From a virus, in the IMG/VR virus record IMGVR_UViG_3300023181_000005, positions 5,427 through 69,426 of that record: a DNA stretch of 64,000 nt, one strand, 5' to 3'. Numbering within the stretch: the first letter of the stretch is position 1; each line of letters starts with the position of its first letter. The translations under genes were made by a program, and so were the position numbers. Below are positions 3,001 to 37,009 of the stretch, one piece after another. The notes beneath the pieces are model-generated. The model saw only the letters and a program-made list of their open reading frames with translations. It was not told where the DNA came from and ran no database searches.

Positions 3001-4394
3001 AGATCGACTGGCCCGCTTGAGATATGTAGCGTTGGATCTTCCTTTAATTCTTGTTCGACTTTATCCCGATTAGACGGTTGATCTTGATTTGGAACTTCCA
3101 GTTCTTCAGGGATTGCAACTCCCTCTGCGTCGGAAGTGGCATCTTGCACGCTCCCGTCTCCTTCCAGAATGGTTTCTTGGGCAATATCCTCTGGGGGTAC
3201 ATAAGTTTCTTGCAGTTGGGTTTCTACAACTGGCGCTGTTTCAGTGGGTGATTCGACAATCTCCTTAAGTACTTCCGCTGTCTGGGGCGCAACAGCAGCA
3301 TTCGCCTCAACATTCTGCGTCAACTCCGCGACTTCCTTATCCACGACGGATTCAGGCTCAGAGGCTTTGATTTCTGGCGATTCGGCAACTGGTAACTTAA
3401 CCAGACCACTGTCAGTCAGGATCTTGAGATCCTGTGCACTCATGCCCGCGAGAAGTTTAGGGTCTGAAATCTTGGTAGCATTATATTGCACCTTGCCGAT
3501 GCCCGGAATATCTGCCTCGCCAATCTCGTCCTCAAATACTTCCCCGACTCCAGATTCAATAGTCTGCGCTTTACGATTAACGCCAGCTAAAGAATTTACA
3601 CCAGCAAACACAGAGCCACCCACCATTCCAAGAGCTGTTGCTTCGCCAGCCCCAGAAAGAATTCCTGGTGTTTCAGTTCCCTCTGGGGACATCGTTTTGT
3701 TTAGAGAGTTACCAGCAACCTGGGCCGCAAACTCCTCCGCCCCTTCAGTTCCAATAGCTTTAGCGGCCCCGCCAACTCCAGCTTCAAGCGATTCTCCCAA
3801 CATCCTGCGAGCCATAGCGGTTTCGCTGCCCATGCCAAAAAGTAGTTTTTCCGTGGCTACTTCCACCGCCCCCCCAAGCAATGCGCGGGCATAGGCAGTT
3901 CCGCCCGTCATGCCATATCGTTCAGCGTCTTGACCCCCACCTCTTGCGCCCTGCAAGAATCCAGAGCCTAACATAGATAGTTCAGCGCCAGCACGAACGC
4001 CGCCCAAAGCTTTACCGATACCACCGCCAATGCCTCCAGTCGCCAGCATGGAGATGGCTTGCCCGCCAGCATTGGCTGCTTTCATCGGAAAGCTCTGCTC
4101 GTAAATAGGATTCACGGGCAGGTAAGATTCGATGCCTTGCTCGATCTCGTTCGCTGTTGATTTCAGTCCCTCAGAGCCAGTAAGGTAGCCAACGCCACCA
4201 ATAGCCCCAGGCACAACGCCAGCAAATCCTCGGCCAGCGGATGAGGCTAGGCTGGATACATAGCCTTGACCTGAGTCTTTGGGCTGACTTGATGATGCCT
4301 GCCTATAAGCTTCCGCAAGAGTGGTTGCCGCCTCGGTATCGCCCGCTGCGTCCGCGCTCTTTAAGGCCTCTGCGATTTGGTCGAGCGTTACCAT
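1..4394 (-). CDS. Large polyvalent virion/ejection protein (>1460 aa, truncated by window edge) with ART-like and zincin metallopeptidase domains
   Basis: Not in the ORF track. ATG at 4394 overlaps the upstream TAA (TAATG). Translated by hand from 4394 to about 1380 and over 1-60 in the same frame with no stop; the stretch between was not fully translated. Gly/Ala-rich N-terminus; LFHGG...GGFYLT...KYA...YDAV...QWVLLN at about 2670-3010; LLHEIIGHMG...ADELLA at about 1620-1790. Confidence 0.85.
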   Translation of the reverse strand, partial: MVTLDQIAEALKSADAAGDTEAATTLAEAYRQASSSQPKDSGQGYVSSLASSAGRGFAGVVPGAIGGVGYLTGSEGLKSTANEIEQGIESYLPVNPIYEQSFPMKAANAGGQAISMLATGGIGGGIGKALGGVRAGAELSMLGSGFLQGARGGGQDAERYGMTGGTAYARALLGGAVEVATEKLLFGMGSETAMARRMLGESLEAGVGGAAKAIGTEGAEEFAAQVAGNSLNKTMSPEGTETPGILSGAGEATALGMVGGSVFAGVNSLAGVNRKAQTIESGVGEVFEDEIGEADIPGIGKVQYNATKISDPKLLAGMSAQDLKILTDSGLVKLPVAESPEIKASEPESVVDKEVAELTQNVEANAAVAPQTAEVLKEIVESPTETAPVVETQLQETYVPPEDIAQETILEGDGSVQDATSDAEGVAIPEELEVPNQDQPSNRDKVEQELKEDPTLHISSGPVDLFHGGLPHDATLDQVDLERAGSQQNKRNRSYGGFYLTDGSSRDWSEKYAKERGAAVHRIRLKTGSRVRYTQENIDRLNASQRAELAKKYDAVRGLDALGRSQWVLLNKDAVESFTPESKSDVTPQTEVEQPLPETTASQTPKTAQEVATPNDRVSFKQEGVMQQGKLVSVSNGVARIEMDDGSIRQAPVQRVSVAPEFQAALSDDIVQSLRARNESELSPEALSKWTPAVYDAAEQYARTGDISILDDLTSVQRKRVRDTYLDSLPELKEMLTRNEAKTERRIADAESKDEIRVRETTGKVDAVEHNDEDGTSWTTSPPPVKGVKPAAVLQVITDMRKILPGMPKVEVVSLADFEQSDRLKGGRDFFTAKGIPLEYVKAWVGHREGTVYIVTDSIANSAEARENLLHEIIGHMGVNAVATAPERARISRIIENVDPELGKMIEKTYSTKRGSQLYADELLAKFSERYQSADPANFKEMGKWQKAWDEIKRIVRAIIKRLGGDPNAFNDAALHKFYTAAVRAVAEGRIPMKSGYNTKQASLSNSQKVLADAAAVARGEKPPDESVGKIIEGLQNGGERKSLFGGKLKSGEAVGSMAERLKISSERVKAQRESQADEAEPEIQASLNPENPESRFSDFGERLQADERFTQEFQDAPATEFEVKHQQDTHDKAAAIIKADGLELAYVKFKDLDNSIPPEVRLAGLMQVAQQYDLLANAREAMGNLPGSEAYDSLMDRAIEAKVDVETRLNNAAREVNLANTWARMSPQGKLRRFERMLSGIRDKASKQEFGNDLGNVRKKVKRIVDESKKAAGEGGKLTDEQMEEAVQKAIADLNPKTRKARSAVPKIIRAILKSDGSGVFSDQSFSDAFSDAFDLPKLTSQDRSQISKLSREINKLPEGSLRDLKTNELLNKLALIKGVSATDAIMGMWYANVLAGLSTQAVNVWGNGALGFMNTLALMVGNGSVSDALAMIKGMAGPGGFRRGVEEAKNTLRTGSVHKNKM

Positions 4395-15390: not shown

Positions 15391-15432
15391 TAAATAAACA
15401 AGGCTCCAGCCGGTAACAGCCAGCTAGAGCCT
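15391..15432 (-). terminator. Intrinsic terminator of the MCP transcript
   Basis: Minus strand AGGCTCTAGCTGG-ctgtta-CCGGCTGGAGCCT followed by TGTTTATTT. Confidence 0.55.
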
Positions 15433-15455: not shown

Positions 15456-16097
15456 ATGAGTCATCAAGCTGAACCCAGCATACGTCTGCGTGGTCATCCG
15501 CGCAAGGAATTGCCGAGCATTGAATTTTTGCGTGAGTGCTTCACGTACGAGCCGGAAAGCGGAATTTTGAGATGGAACAAGAGGCCGGTCCATCATTTTG
15601 TGGGTCAGGGGAAAGCGAATGCTTGGAATGCTAAGCTTGCTGGCAAAGAGGCTGGCAGCAAATGCTGTAGGCCGGATGGTTCCAAGCGGTATATGGACGT
15701 TGGGCTCGGCTCCTTCGGAAAGAAGGCGTGCCTCTACTCGGTCCATTTGATTATTTTCAAAATGCAGGGAGTTGATATTCCAGTTGGCCACGAGATTGAC
15801 CACAAGAATAGAGATCCCCAAGATAACCGATGGGAAAACCTTCGCGTGTGTACGCCTCAAAATAACACTTGGAACAGAAGGGGTCATCGCAAGAAAAAGT
15901 CAGGTCTACCTAAAGGTGTTTTTTGGGATAAGGGATGTTTAATGTCTAAAATCAGGACGAATGGAAAATATACTGGACTTGGATATTTTCATTCAATAGA
16001 GGAGGCTAGCAAAGCTTATGAAGACGCATGCAATGCTTTTCACGGAGACTTTGCCTGCCCCTCCAATTCCCCTCAAGTACCTCTTGAGGGGCTATAG
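15456..16097 (+). CDS. HNH endonuclease with AP2-like C-terminus (free-standing homing endonuclease)
   Basis: FTYEPESGIL, EIDHKNRDPQDNRWENLRVCTPQNN, KGV...LGYFHSIEEASKAY...FHGDFA. Confidence 0.9.
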   Translation: MSHQAEPSIRLRGHPRKELPSIEFLRECFTYEPESGILRWNKRPVHHFVGQGKANAWNAKLAGKEAGSKCCRPDGSKRYMDVGLGSFGKKACLYSVHLIIFKMQGVDIPVGHEIDHKNRDPQDNRWENLRVCTPQNNTWNRRGHRKKKSGLPKGVFWDKGCLMSKIRTNGKYTGLGYFHSIEEASKAYEDACNAFHGDFACPSNSPQVPLEGL

Positions 16098-16103
16098 GTT
16101 GCT

Positions 16104-17276
16104 CTAGTATGAGCAACCTAGGATTCCTACCTGTGGGCACCTACGGACACGCAGTACATAGCCATAACGGATCTTAGCAGGCTTCCACGCGGCTTGGAGA
16201 GGAGCGTAGTACTTGCCAATGTTGCTTAGCGGATTTTCAGTCTCGCTCGGAATGTTCTTCCAGAGCAATTGACCACTCCAATTGACTGCTTGGCCGGAAG
16301 TCATGCCGCCAACCGACCCAAGTGGCTTCGGCATCTGGCGAATCACAACCTCAGGGTGCCACAGATACACATCTTCAAACTCAGCGTTCGTGTAAGCGGC
16401 GCTCACATTAGCCTCAAGGCCGATGGTTGTTGCACTCGATGTGTAGTATGGACGAGGCACCCAAGCGCCGTTCACAAAGTCGTAACGAGGCATGCGGTTG
16501 TCGATACAGTGCATGAAGCCACCGTACACACGGTCAACACCCCAACTTTGCATCAGAACAGCACCATCGCTCTTGCCGGAGTCAGCCCAACGGAAGTCAT
16601 CACGAACGGAAGGATCGCCCTTGATAACGTCACGGCTACGTTCCATCGACATGATGGCCGTAATGAGAGGAGCGCCGTTGCGTTTAGCGTAAGCTTCCTT
16701 GCCGCCACCATCTTGGATGATGCGAACATAAAGCATGTCCAGCAAGCTCTGCGTGAGAATACTCGTCGCAGGAGTTGCTGGCATCGTGGTGCCGTTGGTC
16801 GTCTCGGTGAGAGACTGATTGTACACAATCTTGTGACCAGAGTTGAGGAAATACTTTTCCTTGTCCTTGTCTTCCCAGGTGTCGGTAACTTCGGCAACAA
16901 GGTTGTCTTGGATGGCCTTCACCTGATCCTCAAACATGTAACCACGCCGAGCATCTTCAAAGCAGATAGGCGCAGACTTGATCATGTTCGCTTCTGCCGT
17001 GTAGCTCAGAAGAGTCGAAGCAGGAGAAACAACGGAGGCGGAAGGAACGCAGTTATTAACGCTGCCGTCTTCTTGGACTACAGCCGTCCAGCCATTGCCG
17101 CCAATGCCAGTAGAACGCTGGTAAACGACGGAGTTGAAGTTGAAGCCCATGCCATCGGGCAGTTCGCCCTTTTCCATAAGAGCCGATACACGGCCCTCAT
17201 TACGCATGATTTCATAAATTTTACCCTGAAGACGCGAAGCATCTTGTTCAAAATAGTTGTCGAGAGGAGTTGCCAT
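16104..17276 (-). CDS. Major capsid protein
   Basis: 390 aa, follows portal and scaffold, has its own near-consensus promoter and long leader. Confidence 0.8.
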   Translation of the reverse strand: MATPLDNYFEQDASRLQGKIYEIMRNEGRVSALMEKGELPDGMGFNFNSVVYQRSTGIGGNGWTAVVQEDGSVNNCVPSASVVSPASTLLSYTAEANMIKSAPICFEDARRGYMFEDQVKAIQDNLVAEVTDTWEDKDKEKYFLNSGHKIVYNQSLTETTNGTTMPATPATSILTQSLLDMLYVRIIQDGGGKEAYAKRNGAPLITAIMSMERSRDVIKGDPSVRDDFRWADSGKSDGAVLMQSWGVDRVYGGFMHCIDNRMPRYDFVNGAWVPRPYYTSSATTIGLEANVSAAYTNAEFEDVYLWHPEVVIRQMPKPLGSVGGMTSGQAVNWSGQLLWKNIPSETENPLSNIGKYYAPLQAAWKPAKIRYGYVLRVRRCPQVGILGCSY

Positions 17277-26996: not shown

Positions 26997-27286
26997 GGGC
27001 GTTTAGGTAGATCGAGAAACTCTCGGGCATGCGATGGCGCTGGCCTGTGTTTGGTGAGAAAGTTCTTCCATTCGGCTCGCTTCTTGGACCACTCGCGCAT
27101 CAAGGGAGTCGCCTCGTATTTATTGATGACTTCGAAGGCCGTTGTGAAGTTGAGGTTGTCGGCACGTTTAAGCTGCCGCCACTGGGCTCGGACAAGCGCC
27201 TCCGTCTTTGGGTCCATTCCTGTGAGGTCGATGCGCTCAGCCTCACGCGCACGGTCCTCTGCGGAGTATTGGGATTGAAATCTCAT
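26993..27286 (-). CDS. Hypothetical protein
   Basis: 97 aa, ATGA overlaps on both sides. Confidence 0.55.
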   Translation of the reverse strand: MRFQSQYSAEDRAREAERIDLTGMDPKTEALVRAQWRQLKRADNLNFTTAFEVINKYEATPLMREWSKKRAEWKNFLTKHRPAPSHAREFLDLPKRP

Positions 27287-28011
27287 GAGAAGAAATTGGT
27301 AAAGCGGACGGACCTATAACCGGATGTTGCAGCCTCAAGAATCCGGCCTGCAATTTTTTCTGCGGGGTGCTCTCCAATCTCATTGCGAGTCTGCTCATGA
27401 AGGGCCTTTGCCATTTGCTGACTCCAAGGAGTGCATTCACGCTTAGTTCTGCCAGCCGTTGCCATCTCCTCTCGGTAAGCTGCAAACGTCATGAGTGCGC
27501 TTCGGACCACTTCCGGGAAGTCTGCGGGTGGCAATGTGGCGCAAGCAACCTCTGCCTGGAGCCGGTAAGAATCCCTCCACTCCTCCTCTCCCGCTTTTTC
27601 TGTTAGCTTTTCTCTTCTTGTCTTACTGTTAGCTTTACACGATTTTGTACCGTTTTTCTCACGATACCTCTGCATGTATTCCCTCATGTAAGCAGCTTTA
27701 GACTCTGGTGTACGCACCTCCCGATACTTGAAATAATTTAGGACTCGAAAGCCTCCATCGCACCGCTCAATCCTTCGTCCATCGAACTCAGGTGAGCGTG
27801 AGTCAGGATCAGGCGATTCCAGGCACGCCACAGCCTCACGCGCTTGCTCAGGCGTTACGTTAGCTGTCCTTGGTATAGAACCAGGAGAAACCCGCGCTAC
27901 GCCGTCTCCATCGCAAATGGCGAGTAACGTAATCCAGACCGCCCGTATATGAAGCGGCTCTTGCCAAATTGAAGAGGATGGCAACTCCTTGAATAATTTT
28001 GTAAAGCCCAT
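27283..28011 (-). CDS. Replication initiator-like (replisome organiser) protein, paralogue 2
   Basis: FTKLF...SSIW...LLAICDGDG...SPDPDSRS...GRRIE...VLNYFKYR aligns by eye with the product of 40518-41273. Confidence 0.75.
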   Translation of the reverse strand: MGFTKLFKELPSSSIWQEPLHIRAVWITLLAICDGDGVARVSPGSIPRTANVTPEQAREAVACLESPDPDSRSPEFDGRRIERCDGGFRVLNYFKYREVRTPESKAAYMREYMQRYREKNGTKSCKANSKTRREKLTEKAGEEEWRDSYRLQAEVACATLPPADFPEVVRSALMTFAAYREEMATAGRTKRECTPWSQQMAKALHEQTRNEIGEHPAEKIAGRILEAATSGYRSVRFTNFFS

Positions 28012-28408
28012 TGAGCCATAAATATACCAAGAGGAATGTCTTTGTAAAGTTTTACTGAAGTTTACAGACTTGATTTTGAGAGATTATTTTTTTGGAAGGT
28101 GCGCCTATAATTATTAGAATTTGAGTTTTTGGGAATTAATTGTTTCAGAGAGTGATACGTCTAGCAATGGTGGCGAGCCCATGGTGCCCCACCGCCGGGC
28201 GTGGTGTCTGCCTCAAACGAAAGCTTCCTCTCTCTACACGTACACAGGTAGCTCGACCTTCACCACCATGCACACTAGCCTCTATTGCGTCTCAACATGC
28301 CCCGAAACGTGGGCTAGTAGGGGCAATTACAGGCACCACTAATGCGACACATTGATACTCAACGAACTACACACGGTCTGTACTTTACATTCCGGTAGTT
28401 GTACGTAG

Positions 28409-28882
28409 TTATGACGATGTATTTACAGCCTCCTCGCTCTCCAGGTCGATGACTCGGGGGGATTCACCAGTTGTCACACCACCACCCCAGACGTTCACTT
28501 GAACAGCTGTTTGGGGGGCTGACCAGTTGCCAATCTTGCCCGCAATGTCGATTGCCAGCTTGGCTTCCTGCCAGTTTTCGGGTGTCGGCGCTTGCTCGTA
28601 GAAGCGTTCCAGCCCCTGTTTTGCAAGCTTCATGCCCGTAAACTTCACACTTTCGCCAAGTTCAGCCAGTGACTCGGTAAGCTTTGCGACACTTTGCGAC
28701 GCAATTTCAGCCCTTTTCTTGTCGTATGCGCGGAATTGCGACATCCATTGACCACGCTCAGATCTCTTGCGTAGAGTCTTCTCTTTGATGTCAAACGCCT
28801 GGGCAGTCGCAGTAAAGTCGCCTCCAGTCGCAATAAGGTGGGTTTGAACGACTGACCAATCAATAGGTAATGCGACAGACAT
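28409..28882 (-). CDS. Putative terminase small subunit
   Basis: N-terminal HTH (IDWSVV...TLRKRSERGQW), helical middle and C-terminal beta strand AVQVNV, the usual TerS architecture. Confidence 0.6.
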   Translation of the reverse strand: MSVALPIDWSVVQTHLIATGGDFTATAQAFDIKEKTLRKRSERGQWMSQFRAYDKKRAEIASQSVAKLTESLAELGESVKFTGMKLAKQGLERFYEQAPTPENWQEAKLAIDIAGKIGNWSAPQTAVQVNVWGGGVTTGESPRVIDLESEEAVNTSS

Positions 28883-28957
28883 ACGACAAGGATGCGACAG
28901 AGGCTCTTATTCTGTGCGGACACTACCACAACCCCACGGCTCAAGTCAATAGCGGCA

Positions 28958-29215
28958 TCATGGGCCACAACGTCCATCATCTGTAGCCCCTTTACGCTCC
29001 ACCCTAAACACCGTCAAACCATCCCAGTGTCCGACCTCCTTCACGCTCGCATCCAGCTCCTTTGCCAGCATCCGCGCAATCTTCCGTTGAGCTGCAAACC
29101 TTCGCGCCATCACTACGGGAAGCTTAAACTCGACTCTGCCCGCTTGCTCTAGCTGCTCGGTGACTTGTGCAATCAATGTTCCAACCGCGTCGAATCCCTG
29201 GTCTTGTGTTTCCAT
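28958..29215 (-). CDS. Hypothetical protein
   Basis: 85 aa ORF upstream of the TerS candidate. Confidence 0.5.
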   Translation of the reverse strand: METQDQGFDAVGTLIAQVTEQLEQAGRVEFKLPVVMARRFAAQRKIARMLAKELDASVKEVGHWDGLTVFRVERKGATDDGRCGP

Positions 29216-29350
29216 ATGCGCACAATCCCACCACTCCCCATCCTTGCCAAGCTAAAAACCGTACAGCTCCCTCTCACCGCCTTCCGTTATGTCATATCCT
29301 GCTATCTGAATTAATAATCCTGCTATATCACTCAACATACAATAAAGGTG

Positions 29351-29378
29351 TTTACTTTTATTTGAGGTGTGGTAGATT
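29351..29378 (+). promoter_or_regulatory. Early promoter
   Basis: TTTACT-N16-TAGATT with a TG extension and AT-rich upstream region, at the strand switch. Confidence 0.5.
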
Positions 29379-29412
29379 GATTGCGTTAGAGAACAACGAA
29401 CACCAAACAGAT

Positions 29413-29790
29413 ATGAGCACCATGAATCAACCAAAAATAATGCGTAAAACTTCCATTCCAAGATTGCCAGCACTCCCGGCAAATTGGGTACTCAAAGGCG
29501 ATTACCTCACTGATGACGAAGGTTGTCAGCGTTACATCAAAGATAAAGGCGGAAAAATCGACAGAATGCGGATAGCACAAATCCTGGAAGGATACAGCTT
29601 TCAAGAGCATGCTGCCGCGTGGAAGCACGGAACTGAAGCGTATCACAATAACGCACTTATTTCTGCCATCAAAGCATGCCTACCTAATCTTAATCAGCAC
29701 GCAAGCGCCATGCCGGAAGGGGCAGCAAAGAATGAAGCTTTCGCCCGTATCCACGCCTTATATGAGTCTTTGCCTTCCGTTGAATCTTAA
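29413..29790 (+). CDS. Early hypothetical protein
   Basis: Start moved to MSTMNQPK after an A-rich leader. Confidence 0.6.
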   Translation: MSTMNQPKIMRKTSIPRLPALPANWVLKGDYLTDDEGCQRYIKDKGGKIDRMRIAQILEGYSFQEHAAAWKHGTEAYHNNALISAIKACLPNLNQHASAMPEGAAKNEAFARIHALYESLPSVES

Positions 29791-29793
29791 CCC

Positions 29794-29826
29794 CCTTAGC
29801 CCGCGCTGTTTAGGCGCGGGCTAAGG
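29794..29826 (+). other. 13-bp perfect intergenic hairpin
   Basis: CCTTAGCCCGCGC-tgtttag-GCGCGGGCTAAGG with no U tract. Confidence 0.8.
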
Positions 29827-29871
29827 CGGCACAACCCACAAGGGTTAGAGAAACCGAACAAAGATCAAAAT

Positions 29872-30093
29872 ATGACAACCGAATCCACTATCAAAGACGC
29901 CATCGCCCGCTCTATCAGCCACAATGAAATTGTCCGAGTGACCTTCACGGGCGGCGATATTATTGCCGCCCTGACTGAGGTCCAAATCATTGCTGAAGAC
30001 TGCGATAACGTCACTGAAAATAATGGCGATGAGGACGTATGGGGCACGATTGAAAACGGGGATGAGTTCCGCATCCGTATCGCTATTGCCTAA
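29872..30093 (+). CDS. Acidic early hypothetical protein
   Basis: 73 aa, A-rich leader. Confidence 0.65.
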   Translation: MTTESTIKDAIARSISHNEIVRVTFTGGDIIAALTEVQIIAEDCDNVTENNGDEDVWGTIENGDEFRIRIAIA

Positions 30094-30173
30094 GTATGGA
30101 ATAACGCCTAGACACTCGACGCTTGGGGCAACTCAAGCGTCGCAGTCTGGACGAACCAGAATAGAGAACCATT

Positions 30174-30377
30174 ATGAAATTCCGAGTCAACTATAACCAG
30201 GGTCAAGTGTCCCAACGATTCCATCGCATCAATGACGCCATCACTCACCGTAACGCTAACGGCGGCAGCTACATCCAGAGGCAAGAGGCAGATACCGGCG
30301 AATGGTTTCCTTGCAGCGACAAGGGTGCATTCCTTGATATGACTGCAAAAGAGAATGCTGACCATCCCGCGAAATAA
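30174..30377 (+). CDS. Early hypothetical protein
   Basis: 67 aa. Confidence 0.6.
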   Translation: MKFRVNYNQGQVSQRFHRINDAITHRNANGGSYIQRQEADTGEWFPCSDKGAFLDMTAKENADHPAK

Positions 30378-30378
30378 A

Positions 30379-30430
30379 GGTCGAAACGCTCCCCCGAGCG
30401 TCTGACGGTAAAGCCGTCACTGAAGAGACT
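30379..30430 (+). ncRNA. Hammerhead ribozyme, type II
   Basis: GGTC-GAAA-CGCTC(cccc)GAGCG-TC-TGACGG(taaag)CCGTCA-CTGAAGA-GACT: full CUGANGA/GAAA core, GUC cleavage triplet (cut after 30402), all three stems pair. Confidence 0.92.
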
Positions 30431-30472
30431 AAACAAAGAGAGGAAGGCACTCTACAACGCCCAAAAACGAAC

Positions 30473-30883
30473 ATGAACGCAACATACAACGCAGACGCAA
30501 AGACAAAATGGACACGCAGCCACCGCAAGGAAGGTAAGTGCTATTTTGAGTCGTACCAGATCGTTACGATTGACCCTAAGGCAGCGCGCCCTGAATGGCG
30601 AGCAAAGGTCTCTGTGGAGCTTCGGCTCTACGGGACAGGCAACGTTAACACGGCCTGCCTTTGGGTCTGGGCCGAGAAGGTAAACACACAAGGAAGTGGT
30701 CGCGCCGGCGGCTACGGCTACCACCGCCCAAGTCAGGCAGCAAAGGAAGCAATCGAGAACGCGGGCTTTACCTTGTCACAAGACATCGGCGGAGTCGGTG
30801 ACAGCGCTATCACGGAAGCCCTTTGCGCTATCGCTGACAGCCTTGGACTTGAGAACTGGGGTCTAGTGAAGTCACACGCCTAA
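30473..30883 (+). CDS. Early hypothetical protein
   Basis: 136 aa with GSGRAGGYGYHRPS, a motif recurrent in small phage early proteins. Confidence 0.7.
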   Translation: MNATYNADAKTKWTRSHRKEGKCYFESYQIVTIDPKAARPEWRAKVSVELRLYGTGNVNTACLWVWAEKVNTQGSGRAGGYGYHRPSQAAKEAIENAGFTLSQDIGGVGDSAITEALCAIADSLGLENWGLVKSHA

Positions 30884-30980
30884 CCCCGCTGAAAGCGCCC
30901 AACCCCGTTTCCTGCAAGGGAGCGGGGTTGCGGCAGTACAAGGGCAAACCTGCCCGATGAACGGAAACAGAGAACACATT

Positions 30981-31286
30981 ATGAATGCACACGATCACTT
31001 GAGAGAAGCACGCGCTAAATTGGCAGGGCTTCAAAGGATACTGAAAGACATGGACCCTGCTAGCGGGGTTTCATTCGCTGTAAGGCGTGGAGTTGCTAGA
31101 GACGATGATGAAGTGGATAATGACAGTACCAAGCGCCCCTGGGTGACGCTGGAGCTGTCAGAAATGGCACTCGTAAAGGACACCTTAGATTCCCTTATCG
31201 AAGGCGCAAAATACAACGTCACCTTTTGGGAGGGTGCCACCAAGCGCCTGATTTCCGAAGCTCAAAAGGTGCTAGATGAAAAGTAA
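30981..31286 (+). CDS. Early hypothetical protein
   Basis: Start moved to MNAHDH. Confidence 0.6.
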   Translation: MNAHDHLREARAKLAGLQRILKDMDPASGVSFAVRRGVARDDDEVDNDSTKRPWVTLELSEMALVKDTLDSLIEGAKYNVTFWEGATKRLISEAQKVLDEK

Positions 31287-31364
31287 TTAACCCTCACCCA
31301 ATCGCCCGTTGCTGCTCATGCGGCAACGGGTTTTGGCGGTACTGAGAAAGAACAAATACAGAAT

Positions 31365-31673
31365 ATGAAATACGCGACAACACTACAAGAAAGAGCTGCC
31401 TTAAACGGCGTGGAAAGCTATCAGAGAATCGTTCCAGGTGGGCGAGTTGTTATCTATTCGGAGCACACGGACGGAGAAGGTAAGAACTGGCGTTTTTGGC
31501 TATGCTTCCAACATCGCATAGACGCTCCATCAATATTCACTATACGAGATCAGCTTTATTTAGATAAAGACGGACGATGGAGGCATCCACACGGCGCATC
31601 ATCGCGGCGTCACTTCCACAGCCCAAACGCTGCGGCTAAATATGCGGAGGGGTTACAATACGCCACCGAATAA
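31365..31673 (+). CDS. Early hypothetical protein
   Basis: 102 aa. Confidence 0.6.
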   Translation: MKYATTLQERAALNGVESYQRIVPGGRVVIYSEHTDGEGKNWRFWLCFQHRIDAPSIFTIRDQLYLDKDGRWRHPHGASSRRHFHSPNAAAKYAEGLQYATE

Positions 31674-31831
31674 ACCCCTGACCCTCCTAACGGCTATCCG
31701 GCTACTCCTAGCGGCCTGTGTGGCACTCACCAAAACAATCGGGCGCTCCTTTAATCGGGAGCGCCCTTTGAGTTGCCAGAGCTTATTGTAAAATAAGGGC
31801 GAACTGAAGATGAATTAGAACTAAAAACAAT

Positions 31832-32371
31832 ATGACATTCAAACCACAGCCGAAACACACACTGACCGATGCACAAACACTGCACCTATCCTCTCCCGAG
31901 ATGGTGGCTCTTTTCACTGGACCCGATAGGTACTGTATCAAATCCCCGATGCTTTGCGCGTTCATGGATGAGCTAGAAGAAACCGGGTACGTTTACAATG
32001 CTCGCGCTCAAGTGGAGTTTGAGAAAGTTCACAGCCTTTACCCTTCTCCTCTCGATGGCGAACCGGGATACCGCCCGCTCGCCACACTCGTCTATAACTG
32101 CCAAGGATACCGCCGTCATGACCAGCTTGTGCGTGATGGCTGGAGGGTCGGCACGGAGGAAATGCTGCGCGAAGCATTCAACACAAAGCGGGGCATTATG
32201 ATAATAGGCGAAAGTATGCTTGGGAATCCGGCCCAAGAGGTTTTCAAGGTGCGCGAAATTAACGGTAAGCTTTACGCCTTGCGTCCAAACGCTCGCAAGT
32301 TTGCCATGAAAATCATCGGACACCCTTGCAAAATCGTGCCACTCCCAAAAGCAAAGAAACAGCTAGCGTAA
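31832..32371 (+). CDS. Early hypothetical protein
   Basis: 179 aa. Confidence 0.65.
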   Translation: MTFKPQPKHTLTDAQTLHLSSPEMVALFTGPDRYCIKSPMLCAFMDELEETGYVYNARAQVEFEKVHSLYPSPLDGEPGYRPLATLVYNCQGYRRHDQLVRDGWRVGTEEMLREAFNTKRGIMIIGESMLGNPAQEVFKVREINGKLYALRPNARKFAMKIIGHPCKIVPLPKAKKQLA

Positions 32372-32456
32372 TGCACCCCAAAGCGCGGAAACTCACCACC
32401 TCCGCGCTTTCTATTTCCGGTAAGAGAAAATGGTTGCGCCTCAACACCAAACCACC

Positions 32457-32651
32457 ATGCCAACACCCACACCACCCAAAAAACACGCAGGACGCCCCCA
32501 CAAGGACGCAGCCACAAAAGCAAAAGGTTTCAACTGCAAACTCTACCCCTGGGAGATCGAAAAACTCAATTCCCTGCGCGGTGAGCAAAGTGCAGGCCGG
32601 TTCTTCGCCCAGCTTATGAGCGAGCATGAGGACAAAACAGATGCGCCCTAA
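32457..32651 (+). CDS. AT-hook plus RHH-like DNA-binding protein
   Basis: AGRP followed by FNCKLYPWEIEKL...SAGRFFAQL. Confidence 0.55.
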   Translation: MPTPTPPKKHAGRPHKDAATKAKGFNCKLYPWEIEKLNSLRGEQSAGRFFAQLMSEHEDKTDAP

Positions 32652-32734
32652 TACAATATTACACTTTTACACTTGCAATAGTCGAGTGCGATGTGAAAAT
32701 GGAAACGAAAGAGAAAATAACAACGAAACAAATT

Positions 32735-32971
32735 ATGAACTCACCTCACTTCTTCGGAATTACAAAAGACAAGCCATCGCGCAAAGATGCGCAAGCATGG
32801 AATGCACAAGCACAAAAAAATGGAGGCCACTTTGTTGAAGTGAACCTCAAAACTGGATCTGCGCCTGGAATCAATAACGGACGCTACCAAGGATGGTTTG
32901 AGATCGAAAACTTCGGATCACCTCACAACGAGCGCAGAGCTAATGAAATCAAGGATGCGTGCGGAATCTAA
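32735..32971 (+). CDS. Hypothetical protein
   Basis: Follows a TTGCAA-N16-GAAAAT promoter-like site at about 32672. Confidence 0.55.
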   Translation: MNSPHFFGITKDKPSRKDAQAWNAQAQKNGGHFVEVNLKTGSAPGINNGRYQGWFEIENFGSPHNERRANEIKDACGI

Positions 32972-33065
32972 CCCCCATGAAACTCCTCCTCTTCATCCTC
33001 CTAACAACCGCCCTCCCATTCGCGCCGCCCTTCATCGCTAAAGCAATCTCTCAATACCAATCGAA

Positions 33066-33494
33066 ATGAATACACAAAAACACACGCCTGAGCCTTGGAC
33101 TGTTGCGGTCTCAAATACTTGGCCTCATGGAGAGCCTGAGTTGAAGACCAAGCAACTCTGTATCCATGGCGGGAATGGACAGCCGGGATTCGATGGCAAT
33201 ATCATTGCGCCAATCTCTCCCGAGAAGTATGTCACGCCGGTTGATCGAGCTAATGCAGCCCGCATCGTCTCCTGCGTAAACGCATGCGCCGGGATCAATC
33301 CAGAGGCGGTGCCAGCCCTCCATGGCGGGTTAGAAATCCTAATGAACGTCACGCGCCTGCTGTGTGATGAGGTTGGCGTTGATCTGGATTCACCAGTCAA
33401 TGTGAGTTGTAACAGTGAAGCCCTTGCGGGTCTTACTATCGGGAAACTCCTCAAAATGTGCAGTGCCGCACTCAAGAAAGCAAAAGCCCAATGA
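33066..33494 (+). CDS. Phage hypothetical protein (HTPxPW...ANAARIV family)
   Basis: KHTPEPW...DRANAARIVSCVNACAGI. Confidence 0.7.
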   Translation: MNTQKHTPEPWTVAVSNTWPHGEPELKTKQLCIHGGNGQPGFDGNIIAPISPEKYVTPVDRANAARIVSCVNACAGINPEAVPALHGGLEILMNVTRLLCDEVGVDLDSPVNVSCNSEALAGLTIGKLLKMCSAALKKAKAQ

Positions 33495-33818
33495 ATACAC
33501 CAATACAAGACGGAGGACCAGCTTATCCAAGGGTCGGAATGCAGTACAAGGATGCGTCAGGACTGCCTCTTGCTGCTAGCTCTGGGTATGGCTGGGAACT
33601 TGAGCCTCAAAATGGCATGAGTTTGCGCGACCATCTCGCCAGTCAAGCTTTAGCTGGTATTTGTGCTAATCCATCTGTCCACGCGCCCAATCCAATGAGT
33701 GGCTGGATATGCTTACCATTTGGCAGACGCAATGATATTTGCTCGCACGGCATGCCCCCACGGGAAACAGCCAGAAAACTGCACAGCTTGCAAACAGAAT
33801 AAGGAATCAGCCCAATGA
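33491..33818 (+). pseudogene. Frameshifted GGPAFP...MSLRD-family phage gene
   Basis: GGPAYP...GMSLRDHLASQALAG in one frame; the family C-terminus AYHLADAMIFAR is in another frame after about 33706. Confidence 0.65.
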
Positions 33819-33891
33819 TCCACGCAATCAACGCCTGCTTCACACTCGCCCTTGGGATCGTCCTGATCCTTGGGGCGGCAATTTTACTCTC

Positions 33892-34107
33892 ATGAACTAT
33901 CCACGCACACAAGCCGCCGAAGCCATCAGACACTTCGACAACCCATTTTCCGCCAAGGAGTTTTCTCGGCGGCTGGAGGGTGAGCTGGAGGATTATAGGA
34001 AGGTGCTGGAATTGATTCTTAAAGCTTCCAATGGACTGCCAATTCCAACGATCCTTCATTCACCAATCGCAAAAGCTCAATCAGCCATCAACAAACACAA
34101 GCCCTAA
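33892..34107 (+). CDS. Hypothetical protein (PRT..A / FxRxLE family)
   Basis: MNYPRTQAAE...EFSRRLE; tandem paralogue of the next gene. Confidence 0.55.
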   Translation: MNYPRTQAAEAIRHFDNPFSAKEFSRRLEGELEDYRKVLELILKASNGLPIPTILHSPIAKAQSAINKHKP

Positions 34108-34108
34108 C

Positions 34109-34327
34109 ATGAACTCAAACACACCACGAACAGATGCTGCCGAATATGGTCCAGGGAAGGGCGGAATTTCTGGAAGTTGCTCAGCAGACTTCGCCCGCCA
34201 ACTTGAATTGGAGTGCGACAAATATCGGGAGACGCTGGAGGATTTACGGAGAAATGCAATAGCTCTAGGTAATAATGGAACAGTGGAATGGATCACTAAA
34301 ACACTCAACAAGTACGACCAATGCTAG
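34109..34327 (+). CDS. Hypothetical protein (TPRTDA family)
   Basis: MNSNTPRTDAAE...ADFARQLE. Confidence 0.6.
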   Translation: MNSNTPRTDAAEYGPGKGGISGSCSADFARQLELECDKYRETLEDLRRNAIALGNNGTVEWITKTLNKYDQC

Positions 34328-34460
34328 CACCCCTCCTAATCGCCGCCCTACTCGTCTGCGCTGGCTACCTGTGCCTCGCAGAACACTTTAACATTGATGA
34401 GCACCGCCGAAGGAATAGAGCGCGGGCCGCTAGGAATCTGAATAGGATGGAGAACGAATT

Positions 34461-34697
34461 ATGAATGTTGATCCTGAATATTGGAAGTCTTTGCAAAAGG
34501 AGATGAATGATTTGGCTAATGCCCTCATTGAAGCAACTCCAGCGGAGGAGTTGTTTGACATCTCATTCGGGGATAATCCCACTGCCATCACGCTATCGGA
34601 GGCGCGCATCAAAAGCGCCTTGGCCGAGGCGCTTAAAAAGCAAATGCTGAATGGTGAGTTTACTCCCGAAAATCTCAAAATGGAGAGCCAATTATGA
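34461..34697 (+). CDS. Hypothetical protein
   Basis: 78 aa, ATGA overlap with the next gene. Confidence 0.55.
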   Translation: MNVDPEYWKSLQKEMNDLANALIEATPAEELFDISFGDNPTAITLSEARIKSALAEALKKQMLNGEFTPENLKMESQL

Positions 34698-35068
34698 CAC
34701 CCGAAAAACAACGCATCGCCATCGCTGAAGCGTGTGGAGCGCATTACCTCATCTACGAAGGGGGTGAGGGATGGCTCACAACTGAAGACTATGAGCACGC
34801 AGAACAAAAATTGTCCGCTAAGGATTTTACGGGAGATAGGTCGAAGGTGACAGTTTCTGACATCATTCCCGACTACCTGAACGACCTCAACGCCATTCAA
34901 AAAGCAGTTAAGAAACTGCCGTTAACGCAAAGAGATACGTTCATTCGATATTTATCCCAGGTTACTCAACGCTCGCGAATGGCGACTGTTTGTTGGACAA
35001 ATGCTACAGCTAAAGCTGATCAGTTATCAGAAGCCTTCCTTCGCACCATTGGAAAGTGGGTGGAGTAA
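34694..35068 (+). CDS. Phage hypothetical protein (ABA-sandwich-like)
   Basis: QRIAIAEACG...PDYLNDLNA...ATA...EAFLRTIGKW. Confidence 0.6.
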   Translation: MTPEKQRIAIAEACGAHYLIYEGGEGWLTTEDYEHAEQKLSAKDFTGDRSKVTVSDIIPDYLNDLNAIQKAVKKLPLTQRDTFIRYLSQVTQRSRMATVCWTNATAKADQLSEAFLRTIGKWVE

Positions 35069-35083
35069 CCCCACCCCCAAACA

Positions 35084-35113
35084 CCTGCCACTAACCCTGG
35101 CGGGTTTCTTTTT
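35084..35113 (+). terminator. Intrinsic terminator
   Basis: CCTGCCA-ctaaccc-TGGCGGG followed by TTTCTTTTT. Confidence 0.65.
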
Positions 35114-35145
35114 GCCCTAGTGCCGCCCTTGTGCCACAATCAAGA

Positions 35146-35556
35146 ATGACCCTCTCCACTCTCGCCACCCTGTTTCGCGCCATGCAGCTTGTCGCCCACG
35201 CTGCTCACAACCTCGTCAAAGGCCCGACATTCTTTTCCGATCACGAATACCTGGGCGAGCTTTATCCAGCCTACGAGGAAGCGTACGACTCCCTGATTGA
35301 GCGCAGTATCGGGCTCAAGATGCCAATCAACATCCAGCAGATCACCACCGAGGCGTGTAGGATCTTCGGCCAGTCCAAAATCACAGGGGATGCCAAGGCT
35401 GATTTAACGATCATTGACCGATTGGAAGTGATGACCCGCAAGGAGATTGCCGTCCAGATGAAGGCTAACCCCTCGGACGGCGTGCAAAACCTGCTACAAG
35501 GGCTCGCAGACGACTCGGAGGCCCGCAGCTATAAAATCGGTCAACGGGTGGGTTAA
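35146..35556 (+). CDS. Dps/ferritin-like protein
   Basis: HAAHNLVKGPTFFSDHEYLGELY...DSLIER, the Dps ferroxidase pattern (HxxVxGxxFxxxH...DxxxER). Confidence 0.8.
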   Translation: MTLSTLATLFRAMQLVAHAAHNLVKGPTFFSDHEYLGELYPAYEEAYDSLIERSIGLKMPINIQQITTEACRIFGQSKITGDAKADLTIIDRLEVMTRKEIAVQMKANPSDGVQNLLQGLADDSEARSYKIGQRVG

Positions 35557-35777
35557 GACGCCTCCACGGGCTTGTATTCGACCTCTACGGGTCTCTCCTG
35601 GAGCTTTGGCAGGCCGAACATGAGCCTCCATCTGTTATCCTCGCTCATTTCAGCCAGCGCCTTGTGATTCTGGGCGCGGGCGTAGTCGTATTTCGACCAG
35701 AGGCGAATATCGGATGGTAGATCCTCATCGTTATTCAGTTTCGAGCACATTGCGGTAGGCGTTATGAGCATGAACAT
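35553..35777 (-). CDS. Hypothetical protein
   Basis: Last gene of the long minus-strand operon. Confidence 0.45.
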   Translation of the reverse strand: MFMLITPTAMCSKLNNDEDLPSDIRLWSKYDYARAQNHKALAEMSEDNRWRLMFGLPKLQERPVEVEYKPVEAS

Positions 35778-35991
35778 GCTGAGAAACTTCGTTCAATTGC
35801 TCTCGTATTGAAGGCATAAACCGAGCCGTTGAGCCTTTTTGAAGCAAGCGCAGGTTGTTGAGAAGCTGGGTGCATTCTCTGATTGCGATTCTCAATGACG
35901 CATCAGCGGACTTTTGGAGTGATTCTTGTGTTTTCATTTGGACTGAAAAGGCGGATTGGGCCGCAGTTTCCCGCAACCCGCTCCATTTGTT

Positions 35992-36231
35992 CTACTTCCC
36001 GCTGACCTCAATCGTTGTCGGCGCAGGCGCAAGCACTACCGAGCCAACTTCGCGAACAAGGTTGGCATCCTCTGCACTGATTTTGCCTTTGCTCTGTGCG
36101 TACGAGATCGCAAGATTCGCAATCGCACTCGCCTGGGCCTGTTGAGCCGGGGTGAGATTTGAGCACGAAGGCAAGCAAACAGACGCAACGATAAGCAACG
36201 CGGTGATAACGGGAATGGTAAGGATTTTCAT
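35992..36231 (-). CDS. Putative lipoprotein
   Basis: MKILTIPVITALLIVASVCLPSC: signal peptide plus lipobox. Confidence 0.6.
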   Translation of the reverse strand: MKILTIPVITALLIVASVCLPSCSNLTPAQQAQASAIANLAISYAQSKGKISAEDANLVREVGSVVLAPAPTTIEVSGK

Positions 36232-36743
36232 ACTTCGCTAGTTTGGCCGGGTGAGGGCGTGGAGTCAAGTTTCATCGCGGCGGCTATGGCTTCTCGGGCC
36301 GTCTTGCCAGATGAAATCTTTCTCACGATCAATTCGGCATAAGTCTCCCACTCGAATAAACCACCCTCGTTTTCTTCGCAACTCAGCGACAGACCTTTAA
36401 GTTCCAGCCAGTCCAAAAGTTCCGTGTCGGTAGGCCCGCTCACCTCCGCAGTCGGCATTGCGGCATCGTCTGCGTATCTCCAGCCGATGAGGTCAGTATG
36501 TGAATTTATTCTACTCCACCTAAACACATTGGCGGCCATCGTATAGAGAGAAGGTTTTTCATCTTTTGAGATAACAAAAATTAGGCTCTCCCCATCAACA
36601 GGCCCCGGATTTCCAGGAACGTGCTCGATCCAAACTTTGCCGTGAGCTTCAAATGTCCTGACTGGCGGAAATGATTTATCACTCCCAGGCTCATGGCTCT
36701 CCCATGTCATTGGATTATTTTTAGTTGCTTCAAATTGTTTCAT
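36228..36743 (-). CDS. Hypothetical mosaic protein
   Basis: WIEH.PG.P.P module plus TDTELLDWLE...AREAIAAAM module. Confidence 0.6.
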   Translation of the reverse strand: MKQFEATKNNPMTWESHEPGSDKSFPPVRTFEAHGKVWIEHVPGNPGPVDGESLIFVISKDEKPSLYTMAANVFRWSRINSHTDLIGWRYADDAAMPTAEVSGPTDTELLDWLELKGLSLSCEENEGGLFEWETYAELIVRKISSGKTAREAIAAAMKLDSTPSPGQTSEV

Positions 36744-37009
36744 AAATATAATTTTCCAAATTCGTTTTTAATTTCCTGATCGTCTCTGGCGCAATTGATG
36801 ATGTTGGTAACGTATTGACCGGCTCCACATGCAATGGATTTCACCTCTGATGGGTAGCCGTAGATGTCTTGAACGAAGCGTCCATAGCTTTTACCTTCGC
36901 CGTCAAACATATCTGCAAGATGTTGCATAATGAATGCGAGTTGCTGGCCGGTTGGCTTGCTTTGCCCCTCAAGAATGGAGTCGTGACGGTCATCTGGCGG
37001 TATACTCAT
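36740..37009 (-). CDS. Hypothetical protein
   Basis: 89 aa, ATGA overlap. Confidence 0.55.
   Translation of the reverse strand: MSIPPDDRHDSILEGQSKPTGQQLAFIMQHLADMFDGEGKSYGRFVQDIYGYPSEVKSIACGAGQYVTNIINCARDDQEIKNEFGKLYL

Follow-up and report, generated by a model that had tools for sequence, protein, structure and literature searches.

Intercistronic stem-loops and a candidate type II hammerhead in a small-gene operon of a divergent phage

The DNA analyzed here (the window, 64 kb) comes from a virus record of 69,426 bases (IMG/VR record IMGVR_UViG_3300023181_000005) that has direct terminal repeats, and the subject of the analysis is a plus-strand series of small genes that runs rightwards from a divergent region (approximately 29216-29412) up to position 35068. 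The first seven spacers of this block span 58-158 nt each, in a genome whose genes elsewhere abut or overlap; six of them carry a GC-rich stem-loop and the remaining one carries a candidate type II hammerhead ribozyme. The sequence suggests that these intercistronic RNA stem-loops mark the boundaries at which a polycistronic transcript is processed or its stability is set, the slot being filled alternatively by a ribozyme; to this proposal we attach slightly less than even confidence. A first-pass annotation of the same DNA had considered an mRNA-processing motif, a new self-cleaving class and a cassette-exchange site. Among these readings mRNA processing is the best supported, on circumstantial evidence: a hammerhead occupies one of the slots, related phages carry ribozymes of their own, and the terminators at operon ends are distinct from the internal hairpins.

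Hairpins, hammerhead and leader in the block spacers

The six hairpins proposed in the first-pass annotation were all recovered at their places by RNAfold of the spacers and by a genome-wide stem scan. Spacers S1, S2 and S4 to S7 were folded, with z-scores computed from 200 shuffles. None of the shuffles folded as well as S1 (29788-29871; minimum free energy (MFE) -38.4, z -6.5), S2 (-29.3, z -4.6), S4 (-41.9, z -4.7) or S5 (-30.3, z -5.0), and a single one folded as well as S7 (-15.4, z -2.9). Five of the six spacers are therefore significantly structured, the exception by z-score being S6 (z -1.9 when folded as 140 nt), in which a 10-bp core (31741-31766) lies inside an 18-pair composite. 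With a minimum of 9 pairs per stem, the genome-wide scan identified 26 stems over the 69,426 bases; seven fall between 29791 and 32410, and six of these seven are intergenic. At this density, the block spacers, 787 nt in all, would be expected to hold approximately 0.3 hairpins. Once genes are called, all six co-directional intergenic hairpins of the genome lie inside the block, and four of the five spacers that pass z <= -3 and a folding free energy (dG) <= -20, out of 30 co-directional spacers of 40-200 nt, are block spacers.

The composite stems comprise 16, 19, 17, 17, 18 and 10 pairs in S1, S2, S4, S5, S6 and S7, respectively, with a bulge or internal loop in the first five, and S7 is the weakest of the set. 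In S1, S4 and S6 the MFE fold and a reading of the sequence give a two-hairpin order, a large hairpin followed by a small one. The six stems are unrelated in sequence and have no loop or core nucleotides in common. Folding of both strands yielded a more stable sense structure for four of the six (S2, S4, S5 and S6), an equally stable one for S1 and a weaker one for S7, and eight G-U pairs in the sense folds versus three in the antisense folds. This strand asymmetry is suggestive of a role at the RNA level and does not prove it. The claim that every spacer of the operon carries such a hairpin is accurate for 29788-32430 and fails for the next two spacers: those after genes H and I (32652-32698 and 32972-33065) present z-scores of 0.0 and 0.3, and later genes overlap. 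Hence, the pattern is one of seven consecutive spacers and not of the whole operon.

The spacer without such a stem-loop (30378-30472) had been said to hold a hammerhead, which is borne out as a candidate by an intact core and by homologues in two related phages. The core elements CUGAAGA, GAAA and GUC are all present and the three stems stand in type II order. The match to the Rfam Hammerhead_II model lies below the gathering score (28.3 bits versus 37), with an E-value of 0.0083 in a 4-kb search and of 3.5e-5 per genome. A hammerhead descriptor of our own, with stems of 6, 7 and 4 pairs of which I and III are closed and II is open, returned a single match in the window and 42 related loci, both strands included. 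Standard hammerhead numbering of the core predicts cleavage between 30402 and 30403. Among 40 records of the phage family, Hammerhead_II matched three, namely the window, G030 (29.8 bits) and G023 (45.6 bits, above the cut-off); each match lies directly past a stop codon, and those of both relatives are found in small-gene operons. The G030 hammerhead belongs to a minus-strand operon that also holds a homologue of gene C, approximately 2 kb downstream. In an alignment of the three hammerheads the core is invariant, pairing is kept in 35 of 36 cells, and both sides have changed in two pairs of stem I; with only three sequences, the pairing score does not exceed that of shuffles, 78 of 500 scoring as high. 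We take the window candidate to be genuine, and perhaps slow.

The comparison with ribozyme-associated motifs was made against Rfam 15. At the gathering score this search yielded nothing in the window or in seven loci, and in 29200-33200 at E-values up to 10 it yielded the hammerhead and two chance hairpin matches only. Searches by E-value in six more loci revealed no ribozyme. Hammerhead_3 was absent from all 40 records, and Twister-P5 gave only a weak echo of the twister site of G005 described below. Pistol was also absent from the 40 records, a result of little weight because the control was likewise without any match.

The first-pass annotation had further described flanks shared by the spacers, comprising a C-rich run after the stop codon, CGG-containing strings after the stem and an AGAGAA-like leader ahead of the next gene. 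Only the leader proved to be a motif in its own right. AGAGAA occurs 24 times on the plus strand of the genome, nine of them in the block and six in the spacers, where 0.27 would be expected. Its distance to the start codon (1-19 nt) is too variable for a fixed ribosome-binding register, and it may instead be part of an unstructured leader for translation start. Short leader k-mers are all that the spacers have in common. In S1, S4 and S5 the C-run past the stop codon pairs with GGCGG or GCGGC past the stem, and the resulting lower helix includes a C that is bulged or mismatched; C-run and CGG string are thus two strands of one helix and not independent motifs. The string CGG[CT]A[CG] occurs 65 times on the plus strand, with three instances in the 787 nt of spacers versus 0.74 expected, a weak excess for a motif picked after the fact. 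In the loci L162-L194 of related phages, CGGYA was found in the 3' flank (either strand) of 8 of 89 GC-rich hairpins versus approximately five expected, and three of the eight come from near-identical loci and count as a single site. In each of the eight cases the string is on the sense strand of the block, which is a hint and nothing firmer. The flank on whose conservation the first-pass annotation had staked its proposal is, on both counts, largely unconserved. A reading of the CGGCAC flank as a sigma-54 or spacer-internal promoter was also discarded, since inspection by eye gave no consistent -12 element and the spacers contain no promoter-like site.

Counterparts in related phages

Searches for close relatives with blastn against phages, with tblastn of a 752-aa protein from the structural arm against phages, and by scanning viral contigs with D, G and the 752-aa protein returned no match. 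A search of viral contigs with an alignment of the 752-aa protein recovered 42 loci (29-50% identity). Among usable records the closest is L082, a 5-kb contig that shows 65% identity in a 242-aa neighbour and does not carry the block, and L002-L012 (39-40% identity) have neither a hairpin cluster nor block genes. Two of the retrieved loci, L163 and L166, present at the same position and in the same orientation a run of approximately 12 small genes with spacers of 46-186 nt that hold one or two hairpins without U tracts. Among their long spacers, five of eight in L163 and three of five in L166 fold with z <= -3.7. Their leaders are A/C-rich, and their operons end in canonical terminators made of an A-tract, a long stem and a U-run. 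The homologous operon of L166 also contains a twister-P1 candidate (L166:4779-4843(-), equivalent to G005:C1:44634-44698(-); 48.3 bits against a cut-off of 67.2, E 2.9e-11 per genome) between a likely promoter and the first start codon, ending 13 nt before that codon and with the conserved twister strings aligned. Among the block genes only C (in L191 and L166) and D (in L163) recur in these relatives, in different neighbourhoods, and the remaining gene content is almost wholly different.

Several other structured spacers were noted in these phages. A minus-strand spacer motif recurs in three of them (L163:1902-1942 and 2237-2277; L166:1673-1713 and 3611-3651; L206:2946-2986, 2354-2394 and 1010-1050), in the order of a variable hairpin, often with a ...CCGUAAA loop, a linker RAAWUUUC, a 5-6-bp hairpin with a G-initial pentaloop, and a UAGAGA-like string. 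The pentaloop hairpin CCAGCG-GUGAA-CGCUGG is identical in two different genomes. This two-hairpin motif has no Rfam match, and a covariance model built from it (R1) does not match the window (9.3 bits at best, E 1.6) and recovered, in 40 records, the seven training copies plus one extra weak match. Hairpins of 4-5 bp with an ACAA loop follow large hairpins in the window (29833-29846) and twice in L166 (near 2560 and 4010, minus strand; by eye). In two more distant loci, L200:5556-9400 and L202:5128-7881 (minus strand as sense; the 752-aa protein is 29% identical), stretches of 3 kb hold as many as 12 and 8 hairpins, respectively, many of them with one apical core (CTTAGTGC, a 4-nt loop and GCAYTAAG) inside outer stems that are variable yet complementary (by eye). 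One position in them is G-U only on the gene-sense strand, and the set resembles either an intergenic family of repeated RNA hairpins or a palindrome for protein binding. The family of gene D (phrog_7028) is also found in Certrevirus phages (L001; Cronobacter phage CR9, 84162-89545), among small hypothetical genes with spacers of 45-290 nt.

Possible roles of the spacer elements

Under the processing or stability proposal, one long transcript would start at a putative promoter near 29351-29378 and end most likely at the terminator at 35083-35115, and each of the first seven spacers, with its stem-loop or its hammerhead, would act as a punctuation element. The transcript would be cut in or beside these elements, the hammerhead cutting itself. 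We infer that the hairpins would be cut by a host double-strand- or single-strand-specific endonuclease (RNase III-like or RNase E-like) and that the stem-loop remaining at the 3' end would stabilize the upstream cistron, shielding it from 3' exonucleases. The small second hairpin would cap the new 5' end in three spacers, and hammerhead cleavage would likewise leave the stem III hairpin at the new 3' end and the stem I hairpin at the new 5' end. The outcome would be single-gene mRNAs of individually set stability, on which ribosomes would start at an unstructured, A/C-rich leader of the AGAGAA type. The simplest function common to all the elements would be cleavage of the long transcript between cistrons, protection of the ends so produced, or a combination of the two, which is also the job of the RNase III sites of T7.

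This arrangement was compared with known systems. An RNase III site comprises about two turns of double-stranded RNA (approximately 20 bp), often with an internal loop, and we took the T7 early RNase III sites to lie between genes 0.3 and 1.3 in the five early spacers that were folded with the same tool. These gave z-scores of -1.9 to -4.2, versus -1.9 to -6.5 here. The T7 early operon resembles the block in being a multi-gene phage unit whose intercistronic spacers, 60-180 nt in length, hold one hairpin each, with stems broken by an internal loop and without a U tract, and with a separate true terminator at its end. The T7 hairpins, however, visibly share sequence, whereas the six hairpins here do not and are GC-richer and more stable; no sequence kinship between the six and the folded T7 spacers could be seen by eye. 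The duplex lengths of 16, 19, 17, 17, 18 and 10 pairs come close to, and stay short of, the approximately 20 bp that we take to be typical of RNase III substrates. Intercistronic stabilizer stem-loops, such as REP elements in malEFG or the hairpins of the puf operon, impede 3' exonucleases and give neighbouring genes distinct levels. They are also stable hairpins between cistrons without U tracts; REPs, in contrast, form a repeated sequence family, and each hairpin here is unique. Integron attC sites were considered by eye only, and no GTTRRRY was seen at the 3' ends. For the hammerhead, the precedent is the clusters flanking single genes in prophages and phages, which the passages of Perreault et al. 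2011 drawn on here (PMC3088659) propose to process long phage transcripts. As in those clusters, small genes of a polycistronic phage unit flank a type II hammerhead, which has homologues in related phages and fits the role proposed there of cutting to gene-length mRNAs. It differs in that there is one hammerhead per operon, the other slots being filled by plain hairpins.

Several observations weigh against the processing or stability proposal. The same passages of PMC3088659 describe a pseudoknot between loop I and the 3' tail in most type II hammerheads; G023 has a 5-bp match of this kind, whereas the window hammerhead, which also scores below the Rfam cut-off, lacks it (no complement of loop I was seen in the tail by eye). 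With no close relative, homologous spacers are not open to covariation analysis, and unrelated stems do not amount to covariation. The sense-strand preference is not shared by S1, which is without strand bias, or by S7, which favours antisense, and among the relatives' hairpins six of eight favour sense and two (in L166) strongly favour antisense. The trait is moreover patchy in the family: more than two co-directional intergenic hairpins within 4 kb were found by automated calling only in G000 (6) and G005 (4), the other 15 genomes having at most two, by a crude gene calling that under-counts (G002 has two by it and five by block parse). Structured spacers number 0-3 in 14 of 17 genomes, and ribozymes are rare (hammerhead in 3 of 40 records, twister in 1 of 39). 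Finally, the core stem of S5 is followed by UUUU, the stem of S6 by UUUGAGUU and that of S7 by CUAUUUCC, so that partial termination is possible at these three sites.

The hairpins could indeed act as leaky terminators or pause sites, where RNA polymerase would partially stop or slow down, with expression dropping step by step along the operon, or with the sites serving as a timing device that a phage antitermination factor overrides. The GC-rich stems stand immediately past stop codons, as in intrinsic terminators, and partial U tracts are found at S5, at S6, the only one of the six flagged by a terminator consensus scan, and at S7, where an A-run and the stem are followed by UUUCUAUUU. Relatives, furthermore, have small 5-bp hairpins with G-initial pentaloops (by eye), which presumably resemble lambdoid boxB sites. 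The first-pass statement that no stem has a convincing U tract accordingly holds for S1, S2 and S4 and in part fails for S5-S7: the 12 nt after the stem contain 0, 1, 1, 1, 5 and 5 U in S1, S2, S4, S5, S6 and S7, and 7 at the operon-end site. Judged as intrinsic terminators, the elements have the GC-rich stem-loop (approximately 5-14 bp is usual), with longer stems than usual (16-19 pairs in five of them and about twice the stem of the operon's own terminator), but lack the U-rich tract right after the stem or have a short one, and lie inside the operon. The 13 terminator-like sites in 27000-37000 do not exceed the 12.2 +/- 3.5 seen in shuffles. A self-cleaving ribozyme in the same slot fits this explanation poorly, and no antiterminator gene was recognized among the PHROG and Pfam matches. 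Since the operon and its relatives use their own canonical hairpin-plus-U terminators at operon ends, the internal hairpins appear to be a different signal, and we regard termination or pausing as unlikely to be their function.

Explanations at the DNA level fare less well. As passive remnants, that is, decayed terminators brought along with acquired genes, or as protein-binding palindromes, the hairpins would have no RNA role, which agrees with S1 and S7 folding equally well or better on the antisense strand, with the two L166 hairpins that fold far better antisense, with the patchy distribution in the family, and with the many near-perfect palindromes around one conserved core in the distant relatives L200 and L202. 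It is nonetheless quite improbable, given that six of seven consecutive spacers are very stably structured although their stems share no sequence, that S2, S4 and S5 contain sense-strand G-U pairs, and that ribozymes occupy the same kind of slot. A different DNA-level role would be that of cassette boundaries, the stem-loops and the conserved short leader serving mainly as recombination points at which single orphan genes are swapped, as the passages drawn on here propose for the PeSL elements of T4-like phages (PMC4122927). In common with PeSL cassettes, stem-loops stand between small, variable orphan genes of a hyperplastic region and a short sequence recurs before each gene; that paper's passages describe PeSLs as conserved composite terminator/promoter sequences, whereas the stems here are unrelated. 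A promoter joined to a stem-loop and sequence conserved among copies were both looked for and not found, the promoter scan of S1-S7 being empty. The gene content is compatible with exchange: the block is largely orphan, only C and D of A-H have homologues and these sit in different neighbourhoods, G has none in a word-based search of 5.8 billion proteins, D occurs also in unrelated Certrevirus phages in a run of small genes with spacers of 50-90 nt, and the leader motif recurs ahead of many genes. Neither a specific exchange site nor a conserved junction was found. Stems without common sequence offer no homology for recombination, no close relative is available in which a homology junction at a hairpin could be shown, and the G-U pairs of S2, S4 and S5 favour an RNA role, all of which makes cassette exchange very improbable as the main function.

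The first-pass annotation's other proposal, a new self-cleaving RNA class built on the hairpin and the CGG(CA)GUAC flank, draws on the slot shared with the hammerhead and on the bulged or mismatched C and G-C-GG-(Y)A..AC string that S1, S4 and S5 share at the stem base. To our knowledge, every known small ribozyme has a conserved unpaired core, and here no such core exists, loops and stems have nothing in common, the flank is an after-the-fact motif that is barely enriched in the spacers or in relatives, and the hairpins have no Rfam match, the search at E-values up to 10 having recovered the hammerhead alone as a ribozyme. A new class is therefore highly improbable.

A broader form of the processing or stability proposal is that a cistron-boundary slot in the hypervariable small-gene operon of this phage family can be filled interchangeably by a plain hairpin that depends on a nuclease, by a hammerhead or by a twister, which on present evidence is possible and rather unlikely. 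Hammerheads in phage operons and intercistronic hairpins are both already known, and the design is otherwise familiar from T7 and bacterial operons. What is new is a very divergent phage lineage with both side by side in one operon and with a filler that varies in relatives. Narrow literature searches not aimed directly at the arrangement found no description of it, and we do not claim its absence from print. It provides a compact natural system in which to test whether ribozymes and nuclease-target hairpins do the same job. If the fillers were interchangeable, bacterial and phage hammerheads and twisters would be host-independent substitutes for RNase III/E-type processing hairpins, and this phage family would allow the long-open question of the purpose of hammerheads and twisters to be tested directly by swaps, their common gene context in bacteria and phages being described as still unexplained in the part of PMC6765202 drawn on here.

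Gene block and genome context

The features of the block are collected in Table 1. The putative promoter scores 8/12, under the listing threshold of the promoter scan. For gene E, an in-frame ATG also exists at 30957, and the start at 30981 was chosen by analogy, as its leader (...AGAGAAC..ATTATG) probably corresponds to that of S2. The site at 35083-35115 is the probable end of the transcription unit.

Table 1. Features of the small-gene block in window coordinates.
Feature	Position	Strand	Description
Putative sigma-70-like promoter of block	29351..29378	+	TTTACT, 16 nt, TAGATT; TG 2 bases upstream; read by eye
Gene A	29413..29790	+	125 aa, orphan; no PHROG or Pfam match
S1 hairpin	29791..29829	+	16 pairs, C-C mismatch near base, dG -31.7, 0 U in next 12 nt
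Small second hairpin, S1	29833..29846	+	5 bp, ACAA loop, in MFE structure; AGAGAA directly after, at 29847
Gene B	29872..30093	+	73 aa, orphan by PHROG/Pfam
S2 composite hairpin	30105..30153	+	19 pairs, internal loop; -27.5 sense vs -23.5 antisense
Gene C	30174..30377	+	67 aa; homologues in two related phages: L191 (53% identity), L166 (48% identity)
Type II hammerhead candidate	30379..30430 (Hammerhead_II match 30379-30438)	+	Hammerhead_II 28.3 bits; starts 2 nt past gene C stop
Gene D	30473..30883	+	136 aa; phrog_7028 (function unknown); sole family-matched block gene
S4 hairpin	30897..30934	+	17 pairs, bulged C, two sense-strand G-U pairs; -29.1 sense vs -22.0 antisense
Small second hairpin, S4	30942..30955	+	5 bp, in MFE structure
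Gene E	30981..31286	+	101 aa
S5 composite hairpin	31297..31340 (core 31304-31331)	+	17 pairs; -27.6 sense vs -20.8 antisense
Gene F	31365..31673	+	102 aa, orphan by PHROG/Pfam
S6 composite hairpin	31722..31777 (core 31741-31766)	+	followed by UUUGAGUU
Gene G	31832..32371	+	179 aa; word-based search of 5.8 billion proteins (E <= 0.001) returned the query itself only
S7 hairpin	32380..32410	+	10 pairs, 11-nt loop, A-run and U-run at base; -14.6 sense vs -15.9 antisense
Gene H	32430..32651	+	73 aa, orphan by PHROG/Pfam
Canonical terminator-like site after gene M	35083..35115	+	8-bp stem, then UUCUUUUUGC; 7 U in next 12 nt

The rest of the genome comprises a long minus-strand arm with tail-fibre-like, collagen-repeat, HNH and amidase genes and a replication arm with DnaB, RecT, a PD-(D/E)XK exonuclease and a primase-like replicase; the remaining window proteins are mostly without a PHROG or Pfam family match. 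The 752-aa protein of the structural arm has no match in PHROGs or the PDB; of 1.84 billion representatives, 1,172 are related to it at E <= 0.001, with a top identity of 49%. Judged by its proteins, mostly without family match, and by these relatives, none more than 49% identical, the phage itself appears to be very novel. A search of sequencing runs showed the stretch in one DNA run, which may be its source, and in no RNA run. Among genomes, the 752-aa protein has a single match, on a 3-kb contig that had been binned with a Verrucomicrobiota metagenome-assembled genome, a weak hint of host that was not used as evidence. Shine-Dalgarno sequences are missing from most window genes, whose leaders are A/C-rich (by eye), yet the likely promoters are of sigma-70-like appearance. 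A related locus, L208:3779-9820(-) (corresponding to the window up to 4394), encodes a protein of 2,013 aa that matches nothing in Pfam or the PDB and may be an outsized tail or virion protein, or of an altogether different kind; the idea of N4-like hairpin promoters served by a virion RNA polymerase was dropped. Within the structural arm, an HNH endonuclease gene lies on the opposite strand, adjoined by a 390-aa gene of unknown family and with three strong hairpins around it (15401-15432, 15456-16097 and 16069-16120, gene and hairpins together), and resembles a homing-endonuclease insertion.

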